Shown: positions 2-9,651 of the stretch, in pieces | Layout of the letters: each line of letters begins with the position of its first letter | How positions within the stretch are numbered: position 1 is the first letter of the stretch | Assembly (NCBI GenBank): GCA_035443185.1 | Contig: DAORRV010000001.1 | Location: 42,191-106,190, forward strand | DNA: 64,000 bases | Direction of reading: 5' to 3' | Source of the DNA: Ignavibacteria bacterium | Lineage (GTDB): Bacteria > Bacteroidota > Ignavibacteria > Tepidaquicellales > Tepidaquicellaceae | Translations under genes and position numbers: made by a program | Notes under the pieces: generated by a model | What the model saw: the letters and a program-made list of their open reading frames with translations, nothing else | What the model was told of the DNA's origin: nothing | The model's database searches: none

Positions 2-412
2 AGTGATGAAGCATTGCTTGCTACACTTGCAATTTTGATCTGGCATTTTTATAATGTACATTTTAATCCTGATAAATTTCCGGGAAGCAAGGTTTGGTTC
101 AGCGGAAAAATGACTAGAAAAGAAATGGAGGAAGAACATCCACTGGAACTTGAGGAAATTGAAAACAGACTGAATAAAAAAGAAATGAATATTGAGAAAG
201 ACGGAACTGTAGTGAGTGAAACAGAACAAACTGAAGTAGATACAAAAGTTTCAGATGTAATTAAGCCTGACACAAAACCGGACAATGTTTCAAATGATAT
301 ATCAGATCAGAAAAACAATATAACTGACAGCAGCGATGGTAACGCAAAAAGTAATGACAAAACATCCGGGACCAAAGATCCAGATAATGAAAAAAGTAAT
401 AAAGTTAAATAA
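2..412 (+). CDS. C-terminal fragment of a membrane b-type cytochrome subunit (FdnI/HydC-like) with a long K/D/N/S-rich tail; the 5' end lies outside the window
   Basis: The frame is open from nt 2. The last hydrophobic helix '[15 protein letters not shown]' followed by '[13 protein letters not shown]' resembles the final His-bearing helix and 'G..s..wak.HHP' ending of formate dehydrogenase/hydrogenase gamma (cytochrome b) subunits. It lies directly upstream of the multihaem cytochrome genes. Confidence 0.4.
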
Positions 413-480
413 TTTTTTTAATCAAGTACTGAAAAATAAAATTTACTTTAAAATATTTTAAAAAATAAATCAATAAAAAA

Positions 481-1056
481 ATGAAAAAGATATCGTTCAT
501 TTTGTTGCTTACAGCAGTATTTGCTGTCATAGCAATTTTAATTAACATCGAAATTACAAAATCGCAGCCGCAGTCCCAGGCGAAGTATGTAGGAGTGACG
601 ACTTGCTTAGGCGCCTGTCATAAAAGCGAGAAACAGGGTAATCAGCTTGAAATCTGGAAAAATTCAAAACATTCCCAGGCATTCAAATCCCTTCAGACAC
701 CATTTGCTGACAGCATCGCAAATGCTAAAGGACATTCAACAGCAGCAGCAGAAACACCTGAATGCGTAGTATGTCATGTACTTGGAAGAGAAATGATGCC
801 GGAAGCATTAGAAGTCACGTTTGATAAAACAGAAGGTGTACAGTGCGAATCATGCCATGGACCCGGTTCTGAATACAAAAAACTTTCGATAATGAAAGAT
901 AAGCAGAAATCAATTGATGCTGGTCTTATTGTTCATACCGATGGTGAAAATTTTTGTACAAATTGTCATAATTCAAACTCTCCAACTTTCGTTGAGTTTA
1001 ATTATGCTGAAATGTGGGATAAAATAAAGCATCCAAAACCGGCAGGAGTAGAGTAA
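481..1056 (+). CDS. Periplasmic tetrahaem cytochrome c (c554-like family), paralog 1
   Basis: Has an N-terminal signal/anchor. Four haem motifs: CLGACH (a CX3CH), CVVCH, CESCH, CTNCH. Clearly paralogous to the next ORF. Confidence 0.85.
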   Translation: MKKISFILLLTAVFAVIAILINIEITKSQPQSQAKYVGVTTCLGACHKSEKQGNQLEIWKNSKHSQAFKSLQTPFADSIANAKGHSTAAAETPECVVCHVLGREMMPEALEVTFDKTEGVQCESCHGPGSEYKKLSIMKDKQKSIDAGLIVHTDGENFCTNCHNSNSPTFVEFNYAEMWDKIKHPKPAGVE

Positions 1057-1123
1057 ATTTTACTCTGACTTGTATTGGGTTTTTTATAAAAAATGGAAAT
1101 AGCTTTTCATTAATAAAATAGGT

Positions 1124-1717
1124 ATGCACAATATGAAGTATTTAATTTTGCTTATTATTCCGATGGTCATTCTGATAAATATTTTATCAGGATCAGAAAA
1201 CATATCAAAGGAAAAGTATAAGTATGTAGGAGTAAATTCATGTGTCAGCTCATGTCACAAATCTGAATCACAGGGAAATCAGGAAAAGATCTGGAGTGAA
1301 TCAAAACATTCAAAAGCTTTTGAAACGCTTCAGACAATTCGTGCTGACAGTATTGCATTATCAAAAGGCTTTAACACTCCTGCGGTTGAGACACCTGAAT
1401 GTGTAAAATGCCATACAACAGGAAGTATTACTGATGTAAGTGAGTTTCAGGAAACATTTGATATAACGCAGGGTGTGCAGTGTGAAAGTTGTCACGGACC
1501 CGGATCAGAATACAAATCTCTTTCAGTGATGAAAGATAAAGAGAGAGCATTTTCATTAGGTCTTATAATTCATAATGAAAAGGAAAAATTTTGTATTCAA
1601 TGTCACAACACGGAAAGCCCAACATATTTTCAATTTGATTATGAGCCGATGTGGGAAATGATTGCTCACCCGACACCAAAAAATATTGATTCTGAAAATG
1701 AATCAGAAACAGATTAA
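1124..1717 (+). CDS. Periplasmic tetrahaem cytochrome c (c554-like family), paralog 2
   Basis: Four haem motifs: CVSSCH (CX3CH), CVKCH, CESCH, CIQCH. Collinear with 481-1056 ('YVGV..C...CHKSE.QGNQ..IW..SKHS.AF..LQT..ADSIA', 'GVQCESCHGPGSEYK.LS.MKDK'). The start could instead be the ATG at 1133. Confidence 0.85.
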   Translation: MHNMKYLILLIIPMVILINILSGSENISKEKYKYVGVNSCVSSCHKSESQGNQEKIWSESKHSKAFETLQTIRADSIALSKGFNTPAVETPECVKCHTTGSITDVSEFQETFDITQGVQCESCHGPGSEYKSLSVMKDKERAFSLGLIIHNEKEKFCIQCHNTESPTYFQFDYEPMWEMIAHPTPKNIDSENESETD

Positions 1718-1738
1718 GAAAATGAACAGGAAAATATT

Positions 1739-3040
1739 ATGAAAACTTATTACGCTTTGAAACCGCTTATAATTTTAATGCTGTTGACATGTACTTTTTC
1801 TGTAAATGCTCAGTCTCTGAATTTAAGATTAAGTGCACAGGTTTACGGATGGCAGAGAGCAGACAGCATCGGCAGTACTAATAAAACCAGTCATCTCAGA
1901 AGTTATGAGAATATTCTAATGGAGGTCAGACAGGATAAATGGACTTTTAATACACTCATACAGACAGATGCTGATTTAATGAACCAGATCGGAAAAGGAT
2001 TTGATTACAGATTTTATAATCTTTACATAAAGGGAGCAAATTTATTTGATGTATTAGATATGAAAATCGGGAGACAGTATTTATTTTCGGGTGTAGAGTC
2101 TGGAGCAATGGACGGACTTTATCTGAAGCTGAAAGCAGGAGCAAATAAGGAATATCAGTTTACGGCATTCGGAGGATCGATCACTGAACAGGATTATGAA
2201 TTTACGGGATATGCGCCTTTTAGCGAGAACAGTATTTACGGGGGTAATTTTTCATATTATGGTTTAAGAGATTTTTTCGCAGGGGTTAGTTATGTGAATA
2301 AGCATAATAAACCTGAGCCATACTCAGCCATAAGATATGACACTTTATTTAATCCATATGAAACAACAATAAGTCTTGATTCACCTACAGATCAGCTAAT
2401 AGGTCTGGACATGAATTATACATATTTAAAGAAACATTTTTTCTTTGGAAAATTTTATTATGATTTTAATAACAGGAAAATTTACAGAGGTGAATTTAAC
2501 GCAACTGTAACGGCTTCAGATAATTTTAATGTCACAGGATTTTATACATACAATCAGCCACAGATAAGATACAATAGTATATTCAGTACATTTGATCAGT
2601 CTGAATTTCAGGAAGCCGGCGGGGGAGTGAATTATTCTTTCAGTAACGGTATCAATGCATATGCAAAAGTATCTGATGTGATCTATACTAATGATAATTC
2701 TGTAAAGGTGCAGGCAGGAATAAATAATCCGTCGTACGGACTTGCGTATGTTTATTATGGAGGATATAGTGGTGAATCTAATGGAGTCAACGGATATTAT
2801 TACAGGCAATTAATAGAAAAAATATTGTCGATGAATTTGAGTTTAAATTTTTCGAGTTATAAACTTGGAGAATATTCAACGGAATTTCAAAGTGCATTCA
2901 GCGGATCACTTGGATTGACATACAGACCAAACCTTCAGTTCAGTATAGATTTGCAGGGGCAATTGATCACCAATGAAATTTACAAAACAGACTCGAGATT
3001 TATAGTCGGAATTAATTACTGGTTGTTCACAAAATTTTAA
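1739..3040 (+). CDS. Outer-membrane beta-barrel protein (porin-like), candidate sheath of a porin-cytochrome conduit
   Basis: Signal peptide ('TFSVNA/QS'). Y/G/N-rich alternating beta-strand-like composition, no Cys and no haem motifs. C-terminal aromatic ending '...INYWLFTKF'. Only an 11-nt gap to the following 14-haem gene. Confidence 0.6.
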   Translation: MKTYYALKPLIILMLLTCTFSVNAQSLNLRLSAQVYGWQRADSIGSTNKTSHLRSYENILMEVRQDKWTFNTLIQTDADLMNQIGKGFDYRFYNLYIKGANLFDVLDMKIGRQYLFSGVESGAMDGLYLKLKAGANKEYQFTAFGGSITEQDYEFTGYAPFSENSIYGGNFSYYGLRDFFAGVSYVNKHNKPEPYSAIRYDTLFNPYETTISLDSPTDQLIGLDMNYTYLKKHFFFGKFYYDFNNRKIYRGEFNATVTASDNFNVTGFYTYNQPQIRYNSIFSTFDQSEFQEAGGGVNYSFSNGINAYAKVSDVIYTNDNSVKVQAGINNPSYGLAYVYYGGYSGESNGVNGYYYRQLIEKILSMNLSLNFSSYKLGEYSTEFQSAFSGSLGLTYRPNLQFSIDLQGQLITNEIYKTDSRFIVGINYWLFTKF

Positions 3041-3050
3041 ACAAAAGAAA

Positions 3051-4331
3051 ATGAAAACGAAATTTATAGTTTATTATATTTTATTTCTTACTGGGATAAT
3101 GATATTCCTGACAACGACAGCTTATCTGACAAATGAAGAGACTGAAGCAATGAAATTGAATGAAGTATTCAATATTTCAGCAGTAAAAAATACTAATGAA
3201 AATTCAACTAAATATGACAATAGTAAGCTGATAAAATTTAATCATGAACTTCATTCTCAGGGTGCCGAAATAAAATGTGCTGATTGTCATACAGCGGCAG
3301 TAAATTCTACTTCTGCCAAAGATAATTTAAATCCTACGAAAAAAAATTGTGAAGAATGCCATGATGTAAATGATGAGAAAGAATGTGGTCTTTGCCATTA
3401 TGATAATGTTTATAAAAAGCTCAGATCATCCGACAGTGAACTTTATTTTTCACATAAGGAGCATAATTCACAACAGCAATGTGTGGATTGCCATAAAGAT
3501 ATGGATAAGGTGAAATTTTCGAAAGAAAGTTCTCAGGTAATGCCGACAATGGAAAGCTGTTACAGTTGTCACAATAACAAGAAGGCAGCGAACGAATGTG
3601 AAGTATGTCACACTAACCTTACCAATCTCACGCCTAAGGATCATCTTCAGTCAAATTTTTTGAATGAACATACATCAAAGGTGGCATTTTCTGAAAAGAA
3701 TAATTGTATGATGTGTCACAGTGATAATTTCTGTCAGGCATGTCACAGTCCGCTAAAGTATTCTGGCAACAATACACCTGAAGATTTTTATGTGCCGTAT
3801 TATACAAAAGAAACAGGTACTAGAACAGACCGCGGAGCTTTGCAGAAGCTGACTACTGCTCACACATTAAACTATAAATTTACACACGGACTGGATGCAG
3901 ACAGCAAATCTTTTGAATGCAAGACCTGTCATAATCCGACTGATTTTTGTGCAAGTTGTCATTCAAATGGAGGTGATCTGATTACAGGAATTTCTCCTAA
4001 GAGTCATTCTCAACCAAACTTTACAACAGTAGGTGTAAATACTGGGGGAGGACTTCATTCAGATCTGGCAAAAAGGGATATAGAATCGTGTCAGTCTTGT
4101 CATGACGTTCAGGGAAGTGATCCGGTTTGTGTCCAATGTCACTTTGATAATGACGGAATAGAAGGGACAAATCCAAGGACACATCAAAGTGGATATCTTA
4201 ATGATGAGAAAGGAATTTGGCATGATACACAGGGAGCTGTTTGTTATACATGTCACACAGATCCGAATGCAAGACCGGATGGAGTAGCTGGAGTAGGATT
4301 TTGCGGATATTGTCACGGGATGGAAAGATGA
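3051..4331 (+). CDS. 14-haem c-type cytochrome (cytochrome c3-superfamily-like), N-terminal signal/anchor
   Basis: Fourteen CxxCH motifs counted in the translation (CADCH, CEECH, CGLCH, CVDCH, CYSCH, CEVCH, CMMCH, CQACH, CKTCH, CASCH, CQSCH, CVQCH, CYTCH, CGYCH), plus a hydrophobic N-terminus. Confidence 0.9.
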   Translation: MKTKFIVYYILFLTGIMIFLTTTAYLTNEETEAMKLNEVFNISAVKNTNENSTKYDNSKLIKFNHELHSQGAEIKCADCHTAAVNSTSAKDNLNPTKKNCEECHDVNDEKECGLCHYDNVYKKLRSSDSELYFSHKEHNSQQQCVDCHKDMDKVKFSKESSQVMPTMESCYSCHNNKKAANECEVCHTNLTNLTPKDHLQSNFLNEHTSKVAFSEKNNCMMCHSDNFCQACHSPLKYSGNNTPEDFYVPYYTKETGTRTDRGALQKLTTAHTLNYKFTHGLDADSKSFECKTCHNPTDFCASCHSNGGDLITGISPKSHSQPNFTTVGVNTGGGLHSDLAKRDIESCQSCHDVQGSDPVCVQCHFDNDGIEGTNPRTHQSGYLNDEKGIWHDTQGAVCYTCHTDPNARPDGVAGVGFCGYCHGMER

Positions 4332-4379
4332 ACACATTAAAAATTGAAAATATACCGGTACAATTTTAATTTTAAAAAT

Positions 4380-5255
4380 ATGAATAAGCTTAAAATATTT
4401 TATCTGGCTTTATTAACAGTATTATCTACGGCAATTATTTACAATGGCTGTAGTGAAGTTCAGAATGATCTTGTAACTTCTCCTGAGGTATATGTTCATC
4501 CACCCGGCTGGGCAGACGGAGATACACCGGATTTTCACGGCAATTTTATAAATGATAATAAGCAGTGGAATTTGCAGGTATGTCAGAGTTGTCATGGAAA
4601 TGATTATGCCGGTGGAAGTTCGGGTTCAAGCTGTCTGACCTGTCACACATCATCCGGCGGACCACAGAACTGTCGTCTGTGCCACGGTGGAGTTTCGGGA
4701 AGATCATATCCACCGAAGGCATTGAACGGAGAGACGAGTGTTTCATATATTGGAGTGGGAGTTCATTCATATCATATAGATTCTACACAGTATTCAGCAA
4801 GTGTAGAATGCAATGAATGTCATACTCCACTTACAAGCGGATTTAATTCACCCGATCATATAGGGAATTTCCCTGACGGAATAGCAGAAGTGAATTTCGG
4901 CTCATTGTCAAAGACACAGACTACATTTAAGGGAGGAGAGATAAATCCTGATCCTGTATGGGACAGGAATACGGCTACCTGTTCGGGATCGTATTGCCAT
5001 GGAAATTTCAGGGACGGAAATACAGAAGCAGTTCCGGTATGGACAGATAAAAACAGTGTAAAATGCGGGTCATGTCATGGAGATCCAGTAACTGGAAATC
5101 CAAATCCAATACCGAACGGAAATTTCTTTCACCCGCATTATCCGAGTTATACAATAAATATTTGCTATCAGTGTCATGGTTCGGTGATAGATCAGGCGGG
5201 TAGTATAATAAATAAGAGTAAGCATGTGAATGGAGTGGTGGATTATAATAATTAG
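4380..5255 (+). CDS. Lipoprotein multihaem cytochrome c (6 CxxCH + 1 CxxxxCH; Geobacter-type CxxxxCH...CxxCH domain)
   Basis: The ATG at 4380 gives 'MNKLKIFYLALLTVLSTAIIYNGC', a signal peptide with a lipobox Cys; the track start at 4344 is a TTG. Haem motifs: CQSCH, CLTCH, CRLCH, CNECH, CSGSYCH, CGSCH, CYQCH. Confidence 0.85.
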   Translation: MNKLKIFYLALLTVLSTAIIYNGCSEVQNDLVTSPEVYVHPPGWADGDTPDFHGNFINDNKQWNLQVCQSCHGNDYAGGSSGSSCLTCHTSSGGPQNCRLCHGGVSGRSYPPKALNGETSVSYIGVGVHSYHIDSTQYSASVECNECHTPLTSGFNSPDHIGNFPDGIAEVNFGSLSKTQTTFKGGEINPDPVWDRNTATCSGSYCHGNFRDGNTEAVPVWTDKNSVKCGSCHGDPVTGNPNPIPNGNFFHPHYPSYTINICYQCHGSVIDQAGSIINKSKHVNGVVDYNN

Positions 5256-5270: not shown

Positions 5271-5290
5271 GAAACGGTTTTAACCGTTTA
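5271..5290. repeat. Palindromic element copy 1 (GAAACGGTTTTAACCGTTTA)
   Basis: Near-perfect copy of the 20-bp palindrome family, 16 nt after the cytochrome gene stop. Confidence 0.8.
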
Positions 5291-5460: not shown

Positions 5461-5480
5461 GAAACGGTTTAAACCGTTTC
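5461..5480. repeat. Palindromic element copy 2 (GAAACGGTTTAAACCGTTTC, perfect palindrome)
   Basis: Read directly from the sequence; it is its own reverse complement. Confidence 0.85.
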
Positions 5481-5646: not shown

Positions 5647-5666
5647 GAAACGGTTTAAACCGTTTC
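5647..5666. repeat. Palindromic element copy 3 (GAAACGGTTTAAACCGTTTC), with extended flanking complementarity (ctgac...gtcag)
   Basis: Identical to copy 2. The flanks 'ctgaca' and 'taccgtcag' extend the stem. Confidence 0.85.
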
Positions 5667-6861: not shown

Positions 6862-9240
6862 TTAGTTCTCATGTTCGGCATGAACTTTTTCGTGTCCGTT
6901 TTTACTGTGAACTGAGTTGTGTCCGTTACTGTGACCATTTTGATTTCCTTCCGGTGATTTTACTTTCGGACCTTTAAATCTTCTGTAACGGCTCAATAAT
7001 GATGCGAAGAAACCTAATGCCATAATTATCGTTCCGCCCCAGACAAGGTTTATAAACGGCTTTATACTTGCTGTTAATATCAATGTTTCTGAACTATGAG
7101 TTGAATGCTGATGATCTTCTGCAACTGCTATTTCAATCCCCGATTCACCCGCTATTGAAATTTTTGTAAGGTAAAATGTGAATTTATCATTGGATTCTAT
7201 CTTAGCAGGAATATTCTGTGTCTGACCTTTTGAAAAATATTGTTCTACTATCAATTCTTCAGTCTTTCCGTCCATTGTAATTTCAAGTTTAGCACCAAGT
7301 ATATTTTCTTCGCCTTTTGCCATTGACTCCTGGTTGAATTTTGACTGATCGAACTCTATGAATTTTACATTTACTCCCTTAATTTCTTTTTCACTGCCTT
7401 TGGTTAAATTAACTACATCCTCTGCTGAATACGGCTCCGGAGTTTCAAGCGAAATTGGTTCTAAATATATATCTTTGGTGACAAGGTTTGCAATGTCCGG
7501 ATTCTTCATAATGCCTTCTGAATAATCACTGTAATACATAATTGGTTGTAATAAATATCCTTTACCTTCTTTTTCCACTATTACATTAAAATGATATTTA
7601 TCTTCTGTACCCGGAATAAGACTTGCACCTTTGTAAGTCAGATTATAGCCTAACGCTTCTTTTGATTCACCAAGTGGAAGTGAAACATTTTCTTCCTGCG
7701 AATATTTTGATGAACCGATAATTCCCAAAAACAAAATCATTATCCCAAGATGTGCAATATATGGACCTGCCTTTACGGTACTCTTGGTAAGTATCTTAAA
7801 TATTATATTCAGATTAATAAAGAATGCAAACAATGCTGAAGCAGCAAAGACTGCTATTAAAATATCATCAATTCCAAGTATTACAAGTCCTGTTGTGAAA
7901 ATTACAGTTAAAATTACCGGCATATAAAGCGATTTCAAAAATCTTTTGTGATCAGTATGTTTCCATGCCAGAAGGATACTTATGCCATTTACTAAAGCAA
8001 TTATTATTGCAAGAGGCAAATTCATTTTATTATAAAAAGCAGGATCCACTGTAGCTTTAGTGAATATAGGCCAGCTTGTTCCTACTGAAATTATTAATGC
8101 TGTTGCACATAAAGTGATTGCCCCGATGATTAATGCTGATTCACGGGATAGCATAATACCGGCATTTGTCGAAAGAGATTTTAAACTTTTTAATCTGTAA
8201 AGGATCATTGCGATTCCGCCTCCGCCGAAAAGAGAAAGGAAAACAATTAAAAACAAATATACTTCCTGTCCCGGATCTACAAATGAATGAACTGATGCAT
8301 CTCCAAGAAGTCCGCTTCTTGTCATGAATGTCGAATAAAGCATAAATACAAATCCGAGTATACAAAGTAGTAAACTTGTTTTTTTGTACTTTCCTGTTTT
8401 CTCTTCGCCTACCATTGTGTGAATTGCAGCAACTATAATTATCCATGGAACTAATGAAGAATTCTCAACCGGATCCCAGCCCCAGTAACCTCCCCATCCA
8501 AGAACTCCGTATGCCCAGAATCCGCCAAGCATAATACCAACTCCAAGTATCATTCCTGAAAATAAAGTCCATGGAAGTGCGAGCTTCATCCATCTGTCAT
8601 ATCTGTTCTTAAATAATGCAGCAAGTGCAAATGCAAATGGAATTGCTAGTGAGGAAAATCCTGTGAATAAAATAGGCGGATGAATTGTCATCCAGAAATT
8701 CTGCAGTAAAGGATTCAATCCTCGACCGTCCTGAGGTATAAACCCTGCTTCCACATCTTTTGGAAATGATTCCCATACCAGCATGTAAGGAGATTTTATT
8801 ATCATTATAAATAATAAAAATGTAAGTATTAGAGAATAACTTAACATTACAAGTGGTTCAAAATCATCCTTATGTGAGTGTTCAGCTTTTGCATTTTCTG
8901 AATCTCTTTTTATCAGATAACTGTGAAGGAAAATCCCAATTACTGCAGTTAAAAATGCCCACAGATGAAAACTTCCCTCCTGACCTGCATAAAATGTAGA
9001 GATCAGAAGATTTATTGGAAGATCTTTCGAACTATAATTCCATACATAAGTGTATTGAAACTGGTGTGTAATAATGAGATAAATTAAAAAAGCGGCAGAT
9101 GCTACTGTCATTACTACTGCCAGGTGGAAAAATATTCTTGCAGGCTTTAAGAGCTTTTCATTGCCTCTGCTGACAAAAAAATATGCTGCAGTTGCAACTA
9201 ATCCTGAAATAAATCCTGCTGTTATAAAAAAATGACCCAT
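6862..9240 (-). CDS. ccmF: Cytochrome c-type biogenesis haem lyase CcmF (System I), with a His-rich C-terminal tail
   Basis: Polytopic membrane protein with the WWD haem-handling motif 'GWGGYWGWDPVENSSLVPW'. It has a large C-terminal periplasmic domain and lies immediately downstream of ccmE. The tail reads 'GHSNGHNSVHSKNGHEKVHAEHEN'. Confidence 0.85.
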   Translation of the reverse strand: MGHFFITAGFISGLVATAAYFFVSRGNEKLLKPARIFFHLAVVMTVASAAFLIYLIITHQFQYTYVWNYSSKDLPINLLISTFYAGQEGSFHLWAFLTAVIGIFLHSYLIKRDSENAKAEHSHKDDFEPLVMLSYSLILTFLLFIMIIKSPYMLVWESFPKDVEAGFIPQDGRGLNPLLQNFWMTIHPPILFTGFSSLAIPFAFALAALFKNRYDRWMKLALPWTLFSGMILGVGIMLGGFWAYGVLGWGGYWGWDPVENSSLVPWIIIVAAIHTMVGEEKTGKYKKTSLLLCILGFVFMLYSTFMTRSGLLGDASVHSFVDPGQEVYLFLIVFLSLFGGGGIAMILYRLKSLKSLSTNAGIMLSRESALIIGAITLCATALIISVGTSWPIFTKATVDPAFYNKMNLPLAIIIALVNGISILLAWKHTDHKRFLKSLYMPVILTVIFTTGLVILGIDDILIAVFAASALFAFFINLNIIFKILTKSTVKAGPYIAHLGIMILFLGIIGSSKYSQEENVSLPLGESKEALGYNLTYKGASLIPGTEDKYHFNVIVEKEGKGYLLQPIMYYSDYSEGIMKNPDIANLVTKDIYLEPISLETPEPYSAEDVVNLTKGSEKEIKGVNVKFIEFDQSKFNQESMAKGEENILGAKLEITMDGKTEELIVEQYFSKGQTQNIPAKIESNDKFTFYLTKISIAGESGIEIAVAEDHQHSTHSSETLILTASIKPFINLVWGGTIIMALGFFASLLSRYRRFKGPKVKSPEGNQNGHSNGHNSVHSKNGHEKVHAEHEN

Positions 9241-9258
9241 GATGAACTTAAATTAAAT

Positions 9259-9651
9259 TTATGTACCTGTTTTTTTTACTTCATGACCTTCGCCTTCATA
9301 CTTGGAAGGACATTTAGTTAATACTTCTTTTGCATAAAAATTGCCATCCTTAACTTTACCTTTTGCTACTACAGATTCAGCCATTTCAAAATTATTTGGT
9401 CTTGATCCATCCAGTACCACTTTCATTTCTTTATTGCTTTCATCTAACATATAAAATGTGAACTGATTAGTTGCTGCATCATATTTTGCTTCCTTATCCT
9501 TTTGCCAGTAACCTTTTACCTGGCAGGTCCTGTGACTTCCGGATGCCTGATCGAAATTCGTGTACTCTATATTACTTTCTGTAAATGTCAGAAAGCCTAC
9601 TACTAAAAATACTGCTATTAATAAAACTCCGATTATTGTTTTTTTATTCAT
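9259..9651 (-). CDS. ccmE: Haem chaperone CcmE, Cys-variant (CxxxY in place of HxxxY)
   Basis: Single N-terminal TM anchor, OB-fold-sized periplasmic domain. 'AKEVLTKCPSKYE' aligns with the canonical E. coli 'AKEVLAKHDENYT', with Cys replacing the haem-binding His. Confidence 0.8.
   Translation of the reverse strand: MNKKTIIGVLLIAVFLVVGFLTFTESNIEYTNFDQASGSHRTCQVKGYWQKDKEAKYDAATNQFTFYMLDESNKEMKVVLDGSRPNNFEMAESVVAKGKVKDGNFYAKEVLTKCPSKYEGEGHEVKKTGT

Follow-up and report, generated by a model that had tools for sequence, protein, structure and literature searches.

The first six genes of a 64,000-nucleotide stretch from an Ignavibacteria bacterium (hereafter the window; G000:C1:42191-106190, contig DAORRV010000001.1, in a 3.6-Mb genome of 174 contigs) probably encode a porin-cytochrome (Pcc) conduit that exports quinol electrons to the cell exterior. 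We give this reading roughly three chances in four. Its basis is gene content, haem motifs, a modelled barrel fold, a lipobox, co-conservation, a promoter motif and the phyletic pattern of the genes. From these we infer a physical complex of the products, the surface exposure of the lipoprotein, the direction of electron flow and the substrate.

The first-pass annotation, made from the DNA letters, had proposed six co-oriented genes with gaps of 10–70 nt at positions 2-5255 of the window. Our analysis found all six open reading frames (ORFs) as proposed, on the plus strand and with gaps of 68, 67, 21, 10 and 48 nt, and motif counts on the translations bore out the haem numbers and signals. In order, they encode the C-terminal part of a cytochrome b (2-412), two tetrahaem proteins of the cytochrome c554 family (481-1056 and 1124-1717), a 433-aa outer-membrane beta-barrel, here called the porin (1739-3040), a 426-aa 14-haem c-type cytochrome (3051-4331), and a 291-aa lipoprotein cytochrome (4380-5255). 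Only six ORFs with at least four CxxCH motifs were found genome-wide, and three of these six are in this cluster.

Gene order was compared in about 100 loci, namely 20 loci from relatives and a set of 80 loci from Ignavibacteria-type metagenome-assembled genomes (MAGs), the latter being the best 80 of 341 relatives found by a contig scan with the porin family. The genes for the barrel, the 14-haem cytochrome and the lipoprotein cytochrome were directly consecutive in 20/20 of the first set. In the second set, the 14-haem gene was directly 3′ of the porin gene in 76/80 loci and the lipoprotein gene came next in 73/80, the exceptions being loci interrupted by contig ends or frame breaks. Because this order recurs in 20/20 and 76/80 separately fetched loci, the cluster is far beyond chance. 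The 14 CxxCH motifs of the 14-haem gene were nearly always retained, and a c554-type gene was directly 5′ of the porin gene in most of the loci. Genes for cytochromes, for a cytochrome b and for a sigma-54 activator also recurred, as did a 120-aa ORF that is conserved, with CcmF/CcmE downstream. The order that had been claimed, barrel, periplasmic multihaem cytochrome and lipoprotein multihaem cytochrome, is thus present in the window and recurs in relatives. Among the findings that the annotation had named as speaking against it were a porin occurring apart from cytochromes in relatives and a co-conserved periplasmic reductase, for example for nitrite or sulfite. The porin was never free-standing, since the four loci in which the 14-haem gene did not follow it were broken ones. 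No nitrite or sulfite reductase or other catalytic module was linked to the cluster in any of the approximately 100 loci, and a nitrite, sulfite or hydroxylamine reductase module was rejected on this ground.

The porin was present in 35 of the 41 genomes of our close-relative sample. When 401 genomes were drawn evenly from the phylum, 66 of them had it, every one belonging to the same class, Ignavibacteria; about three quarters of the Ignavibacteria sampled carried it, and no sampled genome of another class did. The membership of the c554 and porin-cytochrome genes in a Pcc cluster was judged against the definition of Shi et al. 2014. By this definition, the 433-aa protein is a porin-like outer-membrane barrel smaller than MtrB, and the gene with 14 CxxCH motifs, 10 nt 3′ of the porin stop, encodes an adjacent secreted, non-lipoprotein multihaem cytochrome. 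The gene following it encodes an adjacent lipoprotein multihaem cytochrome whose outer-membrane localisation is predicted only.

Modelling of the 433-aa protein (1739-3040) by AF2 with a 40-sequence alignment gave a predicted local distance difference test score (pLDDT) of 84 and a predicted template modelling score (pTM) of 0.71. The model shows 24 beta elements from residue 26 to the C-terminus and no plug or cork domain. A Foldseek search of the PDB with this model returned outer-membrane barrels only, the top query TM-scores being those of the 24-strand ushers PapC and FimD, and none of the 50 best matches was an MtrB entry. The signal peptide ends VNA|Q, and the C-terminal NYWLFTKF with its final Phe is nearly invariant. 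A terminal-Phe ending of this kind is a typical BAM beta-signal. On the model, we confidently regard the protein as a predicted plug-free outer-membrane barrel of about 24 strands, which agrees with the wide barrel that had been proposed. In the usual barrel geometry, 22–24 strands correspond to a backbone diameter of about 4 nm. The barrel would then have a backbone diameter of about 4 nm, in the range of the 26-strand MtrB that holds MtrA. The first-pass description of this protein as haem-free and Cys-free was right as to haem, as no haem motif was found; it is Cys-free only when mature, for a single Cys is located within the signal peptide. No family scored above threshold in a Pfam and NCBIfam scan, and the 180 homologues found in a metagenomic protein collection are all unnamed.

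The 14-haem cytochrome (3051-4331) contains exactly 14 CxxCH motifs, as had been counted before. In an alignment of 35 orthologues, all 28 haem cysteines and their histidines are invariant, and T23/A24, where the signal is putatively cleaved, are nearly so, in keeping with the signal or anchor proposed for this protein. Pfam and NCBIfam indicated c7/c3-type repeats, and the N-terminal half consists of c7-type trihaem repeats. Its profile matched GSU1996, the dodecahaem 'nanowire' cytochrome (PDB 3OV0), at E 2.3e-21, and further matched ActA of alternative complex III and c7 cytochromes of the PpcA type. The GSU1996-type profile match argues for an elongated haem chain. All matches to solved structures were confined to the N-terminal six-haem region, and no match was found among solved structures for the C-terminal eight haems. 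The chain may thread the barrel and serve as its inserted haem wire.

The lipoprotein cytochrome (4380-5255) contains six CxxCH motifs plus CSGSYCH, and a lipobox I-Y-N-G-C24. Orthologues begin at an aligned M-K-K, which speaks for the ATG at 4380 as start codon. In 35/35 orthologues Cys24 is invariant, as are the seven haem motifs, so that the claim of a lipoprotein starting at this ATG stands. The CxxxxCH...CxxCH domain, which had been called a Geobacter-type motif, was recognised above the curated cut-offs by PF09698 (28.8 bits versus 21.7) and by TIGR01904 (46.1 versus 27). No relatives of this protein with a solved structure were found. It is proposed to be the terminal cytochrome, at the outer face or otherwise anchored to the outer membrane.

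The two small cytochromes (481-1056 and 1124-1717) are 51% identical to each other, which agrees with the two tetrahaem paralogues described earlier. Each has three CxxCH motifs and one CxxxCH (CLGACH and CVSSCH, respectively), and the fourth haem in each depends on this atypical motif. The first haem site reads CxxxCH in 66 of 84 family members and CxxCH in 17; since the two alternate in the family, CxxxCH is very probably a genuine fourth haem site. PF13435 scored 55.8 bits for the first and 62.8 bits for the second, against a cut-off of 20.8, and both belong to the c554 family by domain score and by their four haem sites. The product of 1124-1717 also matched Nitrosomonas cytochrome c554 (PDB 1BVB, E 7.7e-8). 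Equivalence with Nitrosomonas c554 was rejected for both, as NF043010 gave 48–53 bits against a cut-off of 400. The first has an N-terminal signal or anchor and is a putative periplasmic carrier. The tandem pair was also found in loci of G001 and G005, two of five other sampled genomes of the genus, and in about 12 other loci.

Positions 2-412 had been read as the end of a membrane b-type cytochrome, and they are the last 136 codons of a 327-aa protein whose full gene (G000:C1:41619-42602) starts 571 nt before the window. It matched PF01292 (Ni_hydr_CYTB) with 41.9 bits against 30.1, and its tail is an acidic low-complexity extension. Six histidines (His27, His69, His83, His191, His206 and His237) are conserved across 17 relatives, and four of these (His27, His69, His191 and His206) make up the FdnI ligand pattern. 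The protein is an FdnI/HydC-type dihaem cytochrome b; this type has four membrane helices, with one His ligand on each of helices 1 and 2 and two on helix 4, and a crude hydropathy scan resolved three hydrophobic segments. It is not the formate dehydrogenase gamma equivalog, for which TIGR01583 was weak (41 bits versus 115.85).

Directly 5′ of the cytochrome b gene, and overlapping its start by 11 nt, is the gene of a 657-aa cytochrome with 17 CxxCH and 2 CxxxxCH motifs and a hydrophobic helix at each end. With this membrane-anchored 17-haem cytochrome ahead of the cytochrome b, more of the quinol end is encoded than the window shows, and the quinol-side cytochrome b suggested by the first-pass annotation gains from both this neighbour and the retained FdnI-pattern histidines. 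Further 5′ are the conserved 120-aa ORF and, before it, the gene of a sigma-54-dependent response regulator, which combines receiver, AAA+ and Fis-type HTH domains. The 120-aa ORF is receiver-like by eye; it was rejected as a response regulator for want of a match in Pfam or NCBIfam. The sigma-54 activator has no neighbouring histidine kinase here, and one was found in locus L115.

A −24/−12-type motif (TGGCAC-N5-TTGA; TGGCACATTTATTGA) is located 45 nt before the 120-aa ORF (G000:C1:39304-39318, or L001:10304-10318), 2.9 kb upstream of the window. It is the sole match in the 11.6-kb region, with 49 matches genome-wide, and a motif of this type was found at the equivalent place in 6/14 relatives. 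Matches to sigma-70 promoters and intrinsic terminators inside the operon were no commoner than in shuffled sequence. As predicted from these features, the six-gene stretch is the distal two-thirds of a single sigma-54-dependent operon.

In most relatives, a 17-haem cytochrome of about 680–689 aa with a NapC/NirT-like N-terminus is encoded between the cytochrome b and c554 genes. It is present in locus L034 (L034:2499-4568), whose porin is 95% identical to that of the window. By tblastn, this gene is absent from the whole genome assembly, its expected site being 413-480. In a blastn comparison with L034, the operon did not align over the last part of the upstream 17-haem gene and over the cytochrome b gene, while the remainder was 88% identical. 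The cytochrome b of the window is about 35% identical to the type usual at this position and is a second paralogous type; likewise, the upstream 17-haem gene is at its 3′ end of a different paralogous type. Homologues of this cytochrome b, 59–70% identical, were found in other Ignavibacteria in the same cluster context. One of these loci, L116, has a cytochrome, cytochrome b, c554, porin, 14-haem cytochrome and lipoprotein and, after these, CcmF and CcmE in convergent orientation, which is the arrangement of the window. These same-context homologues suggest two interchangeable inner-membrane modules, and by gene arrangement the window carries the less common of the two.

The core of this system has a published counterpart. 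Shi, Fredrickson & Zachara 2014 list a pcc cluster of Ignavibacterium album, IALB_1840-1837, and describe IALB_1840 as a periplasmic cytochrome, IALB_1839 as a porin-like protein, IALB_1838 as the largest Pcc periplasmic cytochrome (400 residues, 14 haems), and IALB_1837 as an outer-membrane cytochrome with an atypical CX>2CH haem motif (PMC4245776). According to the same paper, IALB_1839 and IALB_1838 were found by homology search as distant outliers, and the I. album porin and periplasmic cytochrome are outside all five Pcc phylogenetic groups. As far as this description goes, and from L090, a MAG labelled I. album, the core composition matches the c554, porin, 14-haem and lipoprotein genes of the window, with 481-1056 corresponding to IALB_1840, the 14-haem cytochrome to IALB_1838 and the lipoprotein to IALB_1837. 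This match indicates that the window holds another copy of a catalogued, uncharacterised system. L090 encodes, in the extended order that holds for the window operon too, a sigma-54 activator, a small ORF, an 18-haem cytochrome, a cytochrome b, a c554, a porin, a 14-haem cytochrome and a lipoprotein, and its proteins are 45–58% identical to those of the window (porin 45%, 14-haem cytochrome 55%, lipoprotein 48%). The window differs from Ignavibacterium in having two c554 paralogues rather than one, in lacking the extra 7-haem gene that is 3′ of the lipoprotein gene there, and in its cytochrome b, which is of a different paralogous type, about 35% identical. For I. album, the available part of PMC4245776 covers only IALB_1837-1840 and does not mention an upstream quinol-oxidase module or a regulator.

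Other reports point to the same kind of cluster. For Ignavibacteria, Pcc clusters described as 'Geobacter-like' or 'OmbB-like' have been reported from hot springs rich in iron and from biofilms on anodes (PMC6137239, PMC7399161), and Ignavibacteria with such clusters, whose porins were scored 'OmbB-like' by hidden Markov model, were enriched on anodes (PMC7399161). An anode-enriched Bacteroidetes MAG has an apparently similar seven-gene cluster of six multihaem cytochromes and a beta-barrel (PMC8258643). The multi-omics (PMC5492636) and genome (PMC3534657) papers on M. roseus hold no data on this cluster.

The OmbB-OmaB-OmcB complex of Geobacter sulfurreducens, like OmbC-OmaC-OmcC (Liu et al. 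2014, as cited in PMC4245776), has the same three components, by composition only. The window resembles Geobacter in having a barrel smaller than MtrB and a CxxxxCH...CxxCH domain in its lipoprotein, and differs in the division of haems, which is 14 + 7 in the window and 8 + 12 in Geobacter. The Geobacter complex has proteoliposome evidence according to that source, whereas the triad of the window is known from its genes. Shewanella MtrCAB (PDB 6R2Q) is alike in concept, with a haem wire in a large barrel leading to a surface lipoprotein cytochrome. In sequence, no match to PDB 6R2Q was found, and the porin had no match to PF11854 (MtrB_PioB), which marks MtrCAB/MtoAB/PioAB systems, at E<=0.1. 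The decahaem family TIGR03508 (MtrA/DmsE) gave no match in the 14-haem protein and only E 0.032 in the lipoprotein. An Mtr-type system was rejected, since its defining families are absent and the 14-haem protein matches repeats of the c7/GSU1996 type and not MtrA/DmsE. GSU1996 itself shares the c7-type trihaem repeats with the N-terminal half of the 14-haem protein; unlike the latter, it is a soluble periplasmic protein without a barrel partner.

At the inner membrane, the closest likeness is to CbcL/MtoC/MtrH of Geobacter (PMC6295460), which likewise combine a multihaem c part with a HydC/FdnI-type dihaem b part near outer-membrane conduit genes. The two parts form a single polypeptide in CbcL/MtoC/MtrH but are encoded here by two genes (657 aa and 327 aa) with an 11-nt overlap, so that the proteins fall outside this family. 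Compared by architecture, the c part here has 17 CxxCH and 2 CxxxxCH motifs and its own N- and C-terminal helices, against nine haem motifs in the CbcL type.

Another of the six ORFs with at least four CxxCH motifs is on contig C124 (G000:C124:4166-6247, minus strand; L118:2164-4248) and encodes a 694-aa nine-haem protein. It has an MtrC/MtrF-type domain and a Por_Secre_tail domain (PF18962, 33.1 bits versus 27), and matched locally OcwA of Thermincola (PDB 6I5B, E 1.4e-6). The same genome encodes a type IX secretion system (T9SS) translocon (SprA_N, 153.7 bits, in a 2203-codon frame). With both the tail domain and the translocon in the genome, the protein is a predicted type IX cargo. It resembles OcwA of Thermincola potens in its nine CxxCH motifs and presumed cell-surface site, and differs from it in that OcwA belongs to a Gram-positive cell wall, whereas the C124 cytochrome has a Por_Secre_tail and a diderm host with a Pcc conduit. 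Among the 41 close relatives, 34 had both the porin and the nine-haem cytochrome, six had neither, one had the porin only and none had the cytochrome only (Fisher p 1.6e-6, uncorrected for phylogeny). In the phylum sample, 49/50 genomes with the nine-haem cytochrome carried the porin, and 17/66 porin genomes were without the nine-haem cytochrome. Where both genes were on a shared contig, they were 2–23 kb apart in 14/15 genomes, and in several relatives the nine-haem gene was directly 5′ of the porin gene. In the window genome and its genus, it is on a different contig from the porin gene.

These observations suggest, tentatively and at slightly under even odds, that the Ignavibacteria Pcc conduit feeds a surface OcwA-like nine-haem cytochrome placed by the T9SS beyond its own lipoprotein, and that the inner-membrane end of the conduit is modular, with the cytochrome b swapped and the NapC/NirT-like gene dropped in the window. 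If this is true, the T9SS would be part of a respiratory electron outlet, a way of building such an outlet that was not found in the literature searched. No paper mentioning type IX secretion together with multihaem cytochromes was found in our literature search.

In the reading that we prefer, a Pcc-type conduit for outward electron flow, menaquinol would be oxidised at the inner membrane by the 17-haem cytochrome and the FdnI/HydC-type cytochrome b, acting as a split-gene analogue of CbcL. In the periplasm, the c554-family tetrahaem proteins, one or both of them, would then take up the electrons and carry them to the 14-haem c7-repeat wire, which may lie inside the plug-free barrel of about 24 strands and so span the outer membrane. 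Next would come the outer-membrane-anchored 7-haem lipoprotein cytochrome, from which they would reach an extracellular acceptor such as Fe(III)/Mn(IV) minerals, humics, an electrode or a partner cell. The last transfer might proceed through the separately encoded OcwA-like nine-haem T9SS-exported cytochrome.

Several points weigh against this conduit. Sequence and profile searches with the porin gave no match to MtrB or to any solved structure, and no comparator of Geobacter type came from the 14 control genomes, in which TIGR01904 had no match. A single-chain AF2 model of the 14-haem protein from the 35-sequence alignment reached a pLDDT of only 46 and a pTM of 0.34. The residues following the lipid-bearing cysteine, C-S-E-V, are weakly like the acidic surface-export signal of Bacteroidota, which makes outward exposure of the lipoprotein uncertain. 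I. album, a carrier of the cluster, was reported to be incapable of growth with Fe(III) or Mn(IV) oxides, as cited in PMC4245776, and no biochemical or genetic test of any Ignavibacteria-type copy was found in the literature.

The weak export signal would also suit a lipoprotein that faced the periplasm or only served as a tether, with the T9SS nine-haem cytochrome as the outward partner. The system would then resemble two-component MtoAB or Anaeromyxobacter Pcc-like systems with a secreted acceptor. The nesting of the nine-haem cytochrome within porin genomes (49/50) and its proximity to the porin gene, sometimes directly 5′ of it, agree with such an arrangement, as does the observation, also made in PMC4245776, that 14 haems exceed the need for membrane crossing. 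Yet the lipoprotein gene was in place in 73/80 loci while the T9SS cytochrome was missing from 17/66 porin genomes, so that the lipoprotein is the more constant partner, and in the window genome and its genus the T9SS cytochrome gene is on a different contig. We consider this arrangement unlikely.

Inward flow, with extracellular Fe(II), a cathode or a syntrophic partner as the electron source and the quinone pool or periplasmic reductases as the destination, as in MtoAB and PioAB, seems to us quite improbable. No sequence feature fixes the direction, porin-cytochrome and CbcL/MtoC-type modules are known in metal oxidisers as well as in metal reducers (PMC6295460), and the failure of I. album to reduce Fe(III) or Mn(IV) oxides would fit inward flow too. 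Against these stand the enrichment of cluster-bearing Ignavibacteria on anodes and not on cathodes (PMC7399161), the resemblance of the co-occurring OcwA-like nine-haem cytochrome to a terminal reductase, and the presence of the porin/14-haem/lipoprotein triad in Melioribacteraceae MAG loci. Purely periplasmic electron storage or reductase feeding for soluble acceptors, with the barrel as a co-transcribed ordinary substrate channel, would suit the periplasmic roles of other c554- and c7-type cytochromes (from Pfam names) and the missing family annotation of the barrel, but is very improbable, as the barrel was never found apart from the 14-haem gene, no catalytic subunit was linked in about 100 loci, the third gene of the triad encodes a lipoprotein cytochrome, and a 24-strand barrel modelled without plug or constriction loops would be an open hole unless filled.

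Downstream of the operon and convergent with it, CcmF (6862-9240) and CcmE (9259-9651) are encoded on the minus strand (6862-9651 together; Pfam CcmF_C, Cytochrom_C_asm and CcmE). A CcmF homologue was found in the flank of 37/61 loci having at least 3 kb downstream, and likewise in L115 and L116. From this recurrence, CcmF/CcmE is taken as a conserved neighbour outside the conduit itself. CcmF has 792 aa and a His-rich C-terminal tail (...NGHSNGHNSVHSKNGHEKVHAEHEN). CcmE ends ...LTKCPSKYEG, in which, as read from the translation only, a Cys replaces the haem-binding His of HxxxY, giving a CxxxY variant. The 700-nt ORF-free spacer 3′ of the operon contains three copies of a palindrome of about 20 nt, GAAACGGTTTAAACCGTTTC, at 5271-5290, 5461-5480 and 5647-5666, with a spacing of about 190 nt, the first starting 16 nt past the lipoprotein stop. 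The palindrome could be a terminator hairpin or a REP-like element.

Upstream of the window, the region L001:1880-7150 (G000:C1:30880-36150) encodes a membrane protein of the HupE/UreJ family, a TPR protein and two proteins with T9SS tails, one of them a DUF4331 protein and the other 264 aa long; in L115, the cluster adjoins a comparable small gene with such a tail. Elsewhere in the genome, G000:C5:56102-58228 (L117:2103-4226) encodes a 708-aa protein in which about seven CxxCH motifs of c554-like type are fused to an extended TPR region at the C-terminus, part of which matched the CcmH/CycH TPR domain.

The novelty of the core is low, and the sigma-54 control, the two inner-membrane modules and the T9SS link are modest additions. 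Sediments, aquifers, activated sludge and electrode biofilms commonly contain Ignavibacteria. As the main multihaem system of this genome, carried by about three quarters of the sampled Ignavibacteria genomes and by none from other classes of the phylum, the cluster is the obvious first target for testing extracellular electron transfer in Ignavibacteria.

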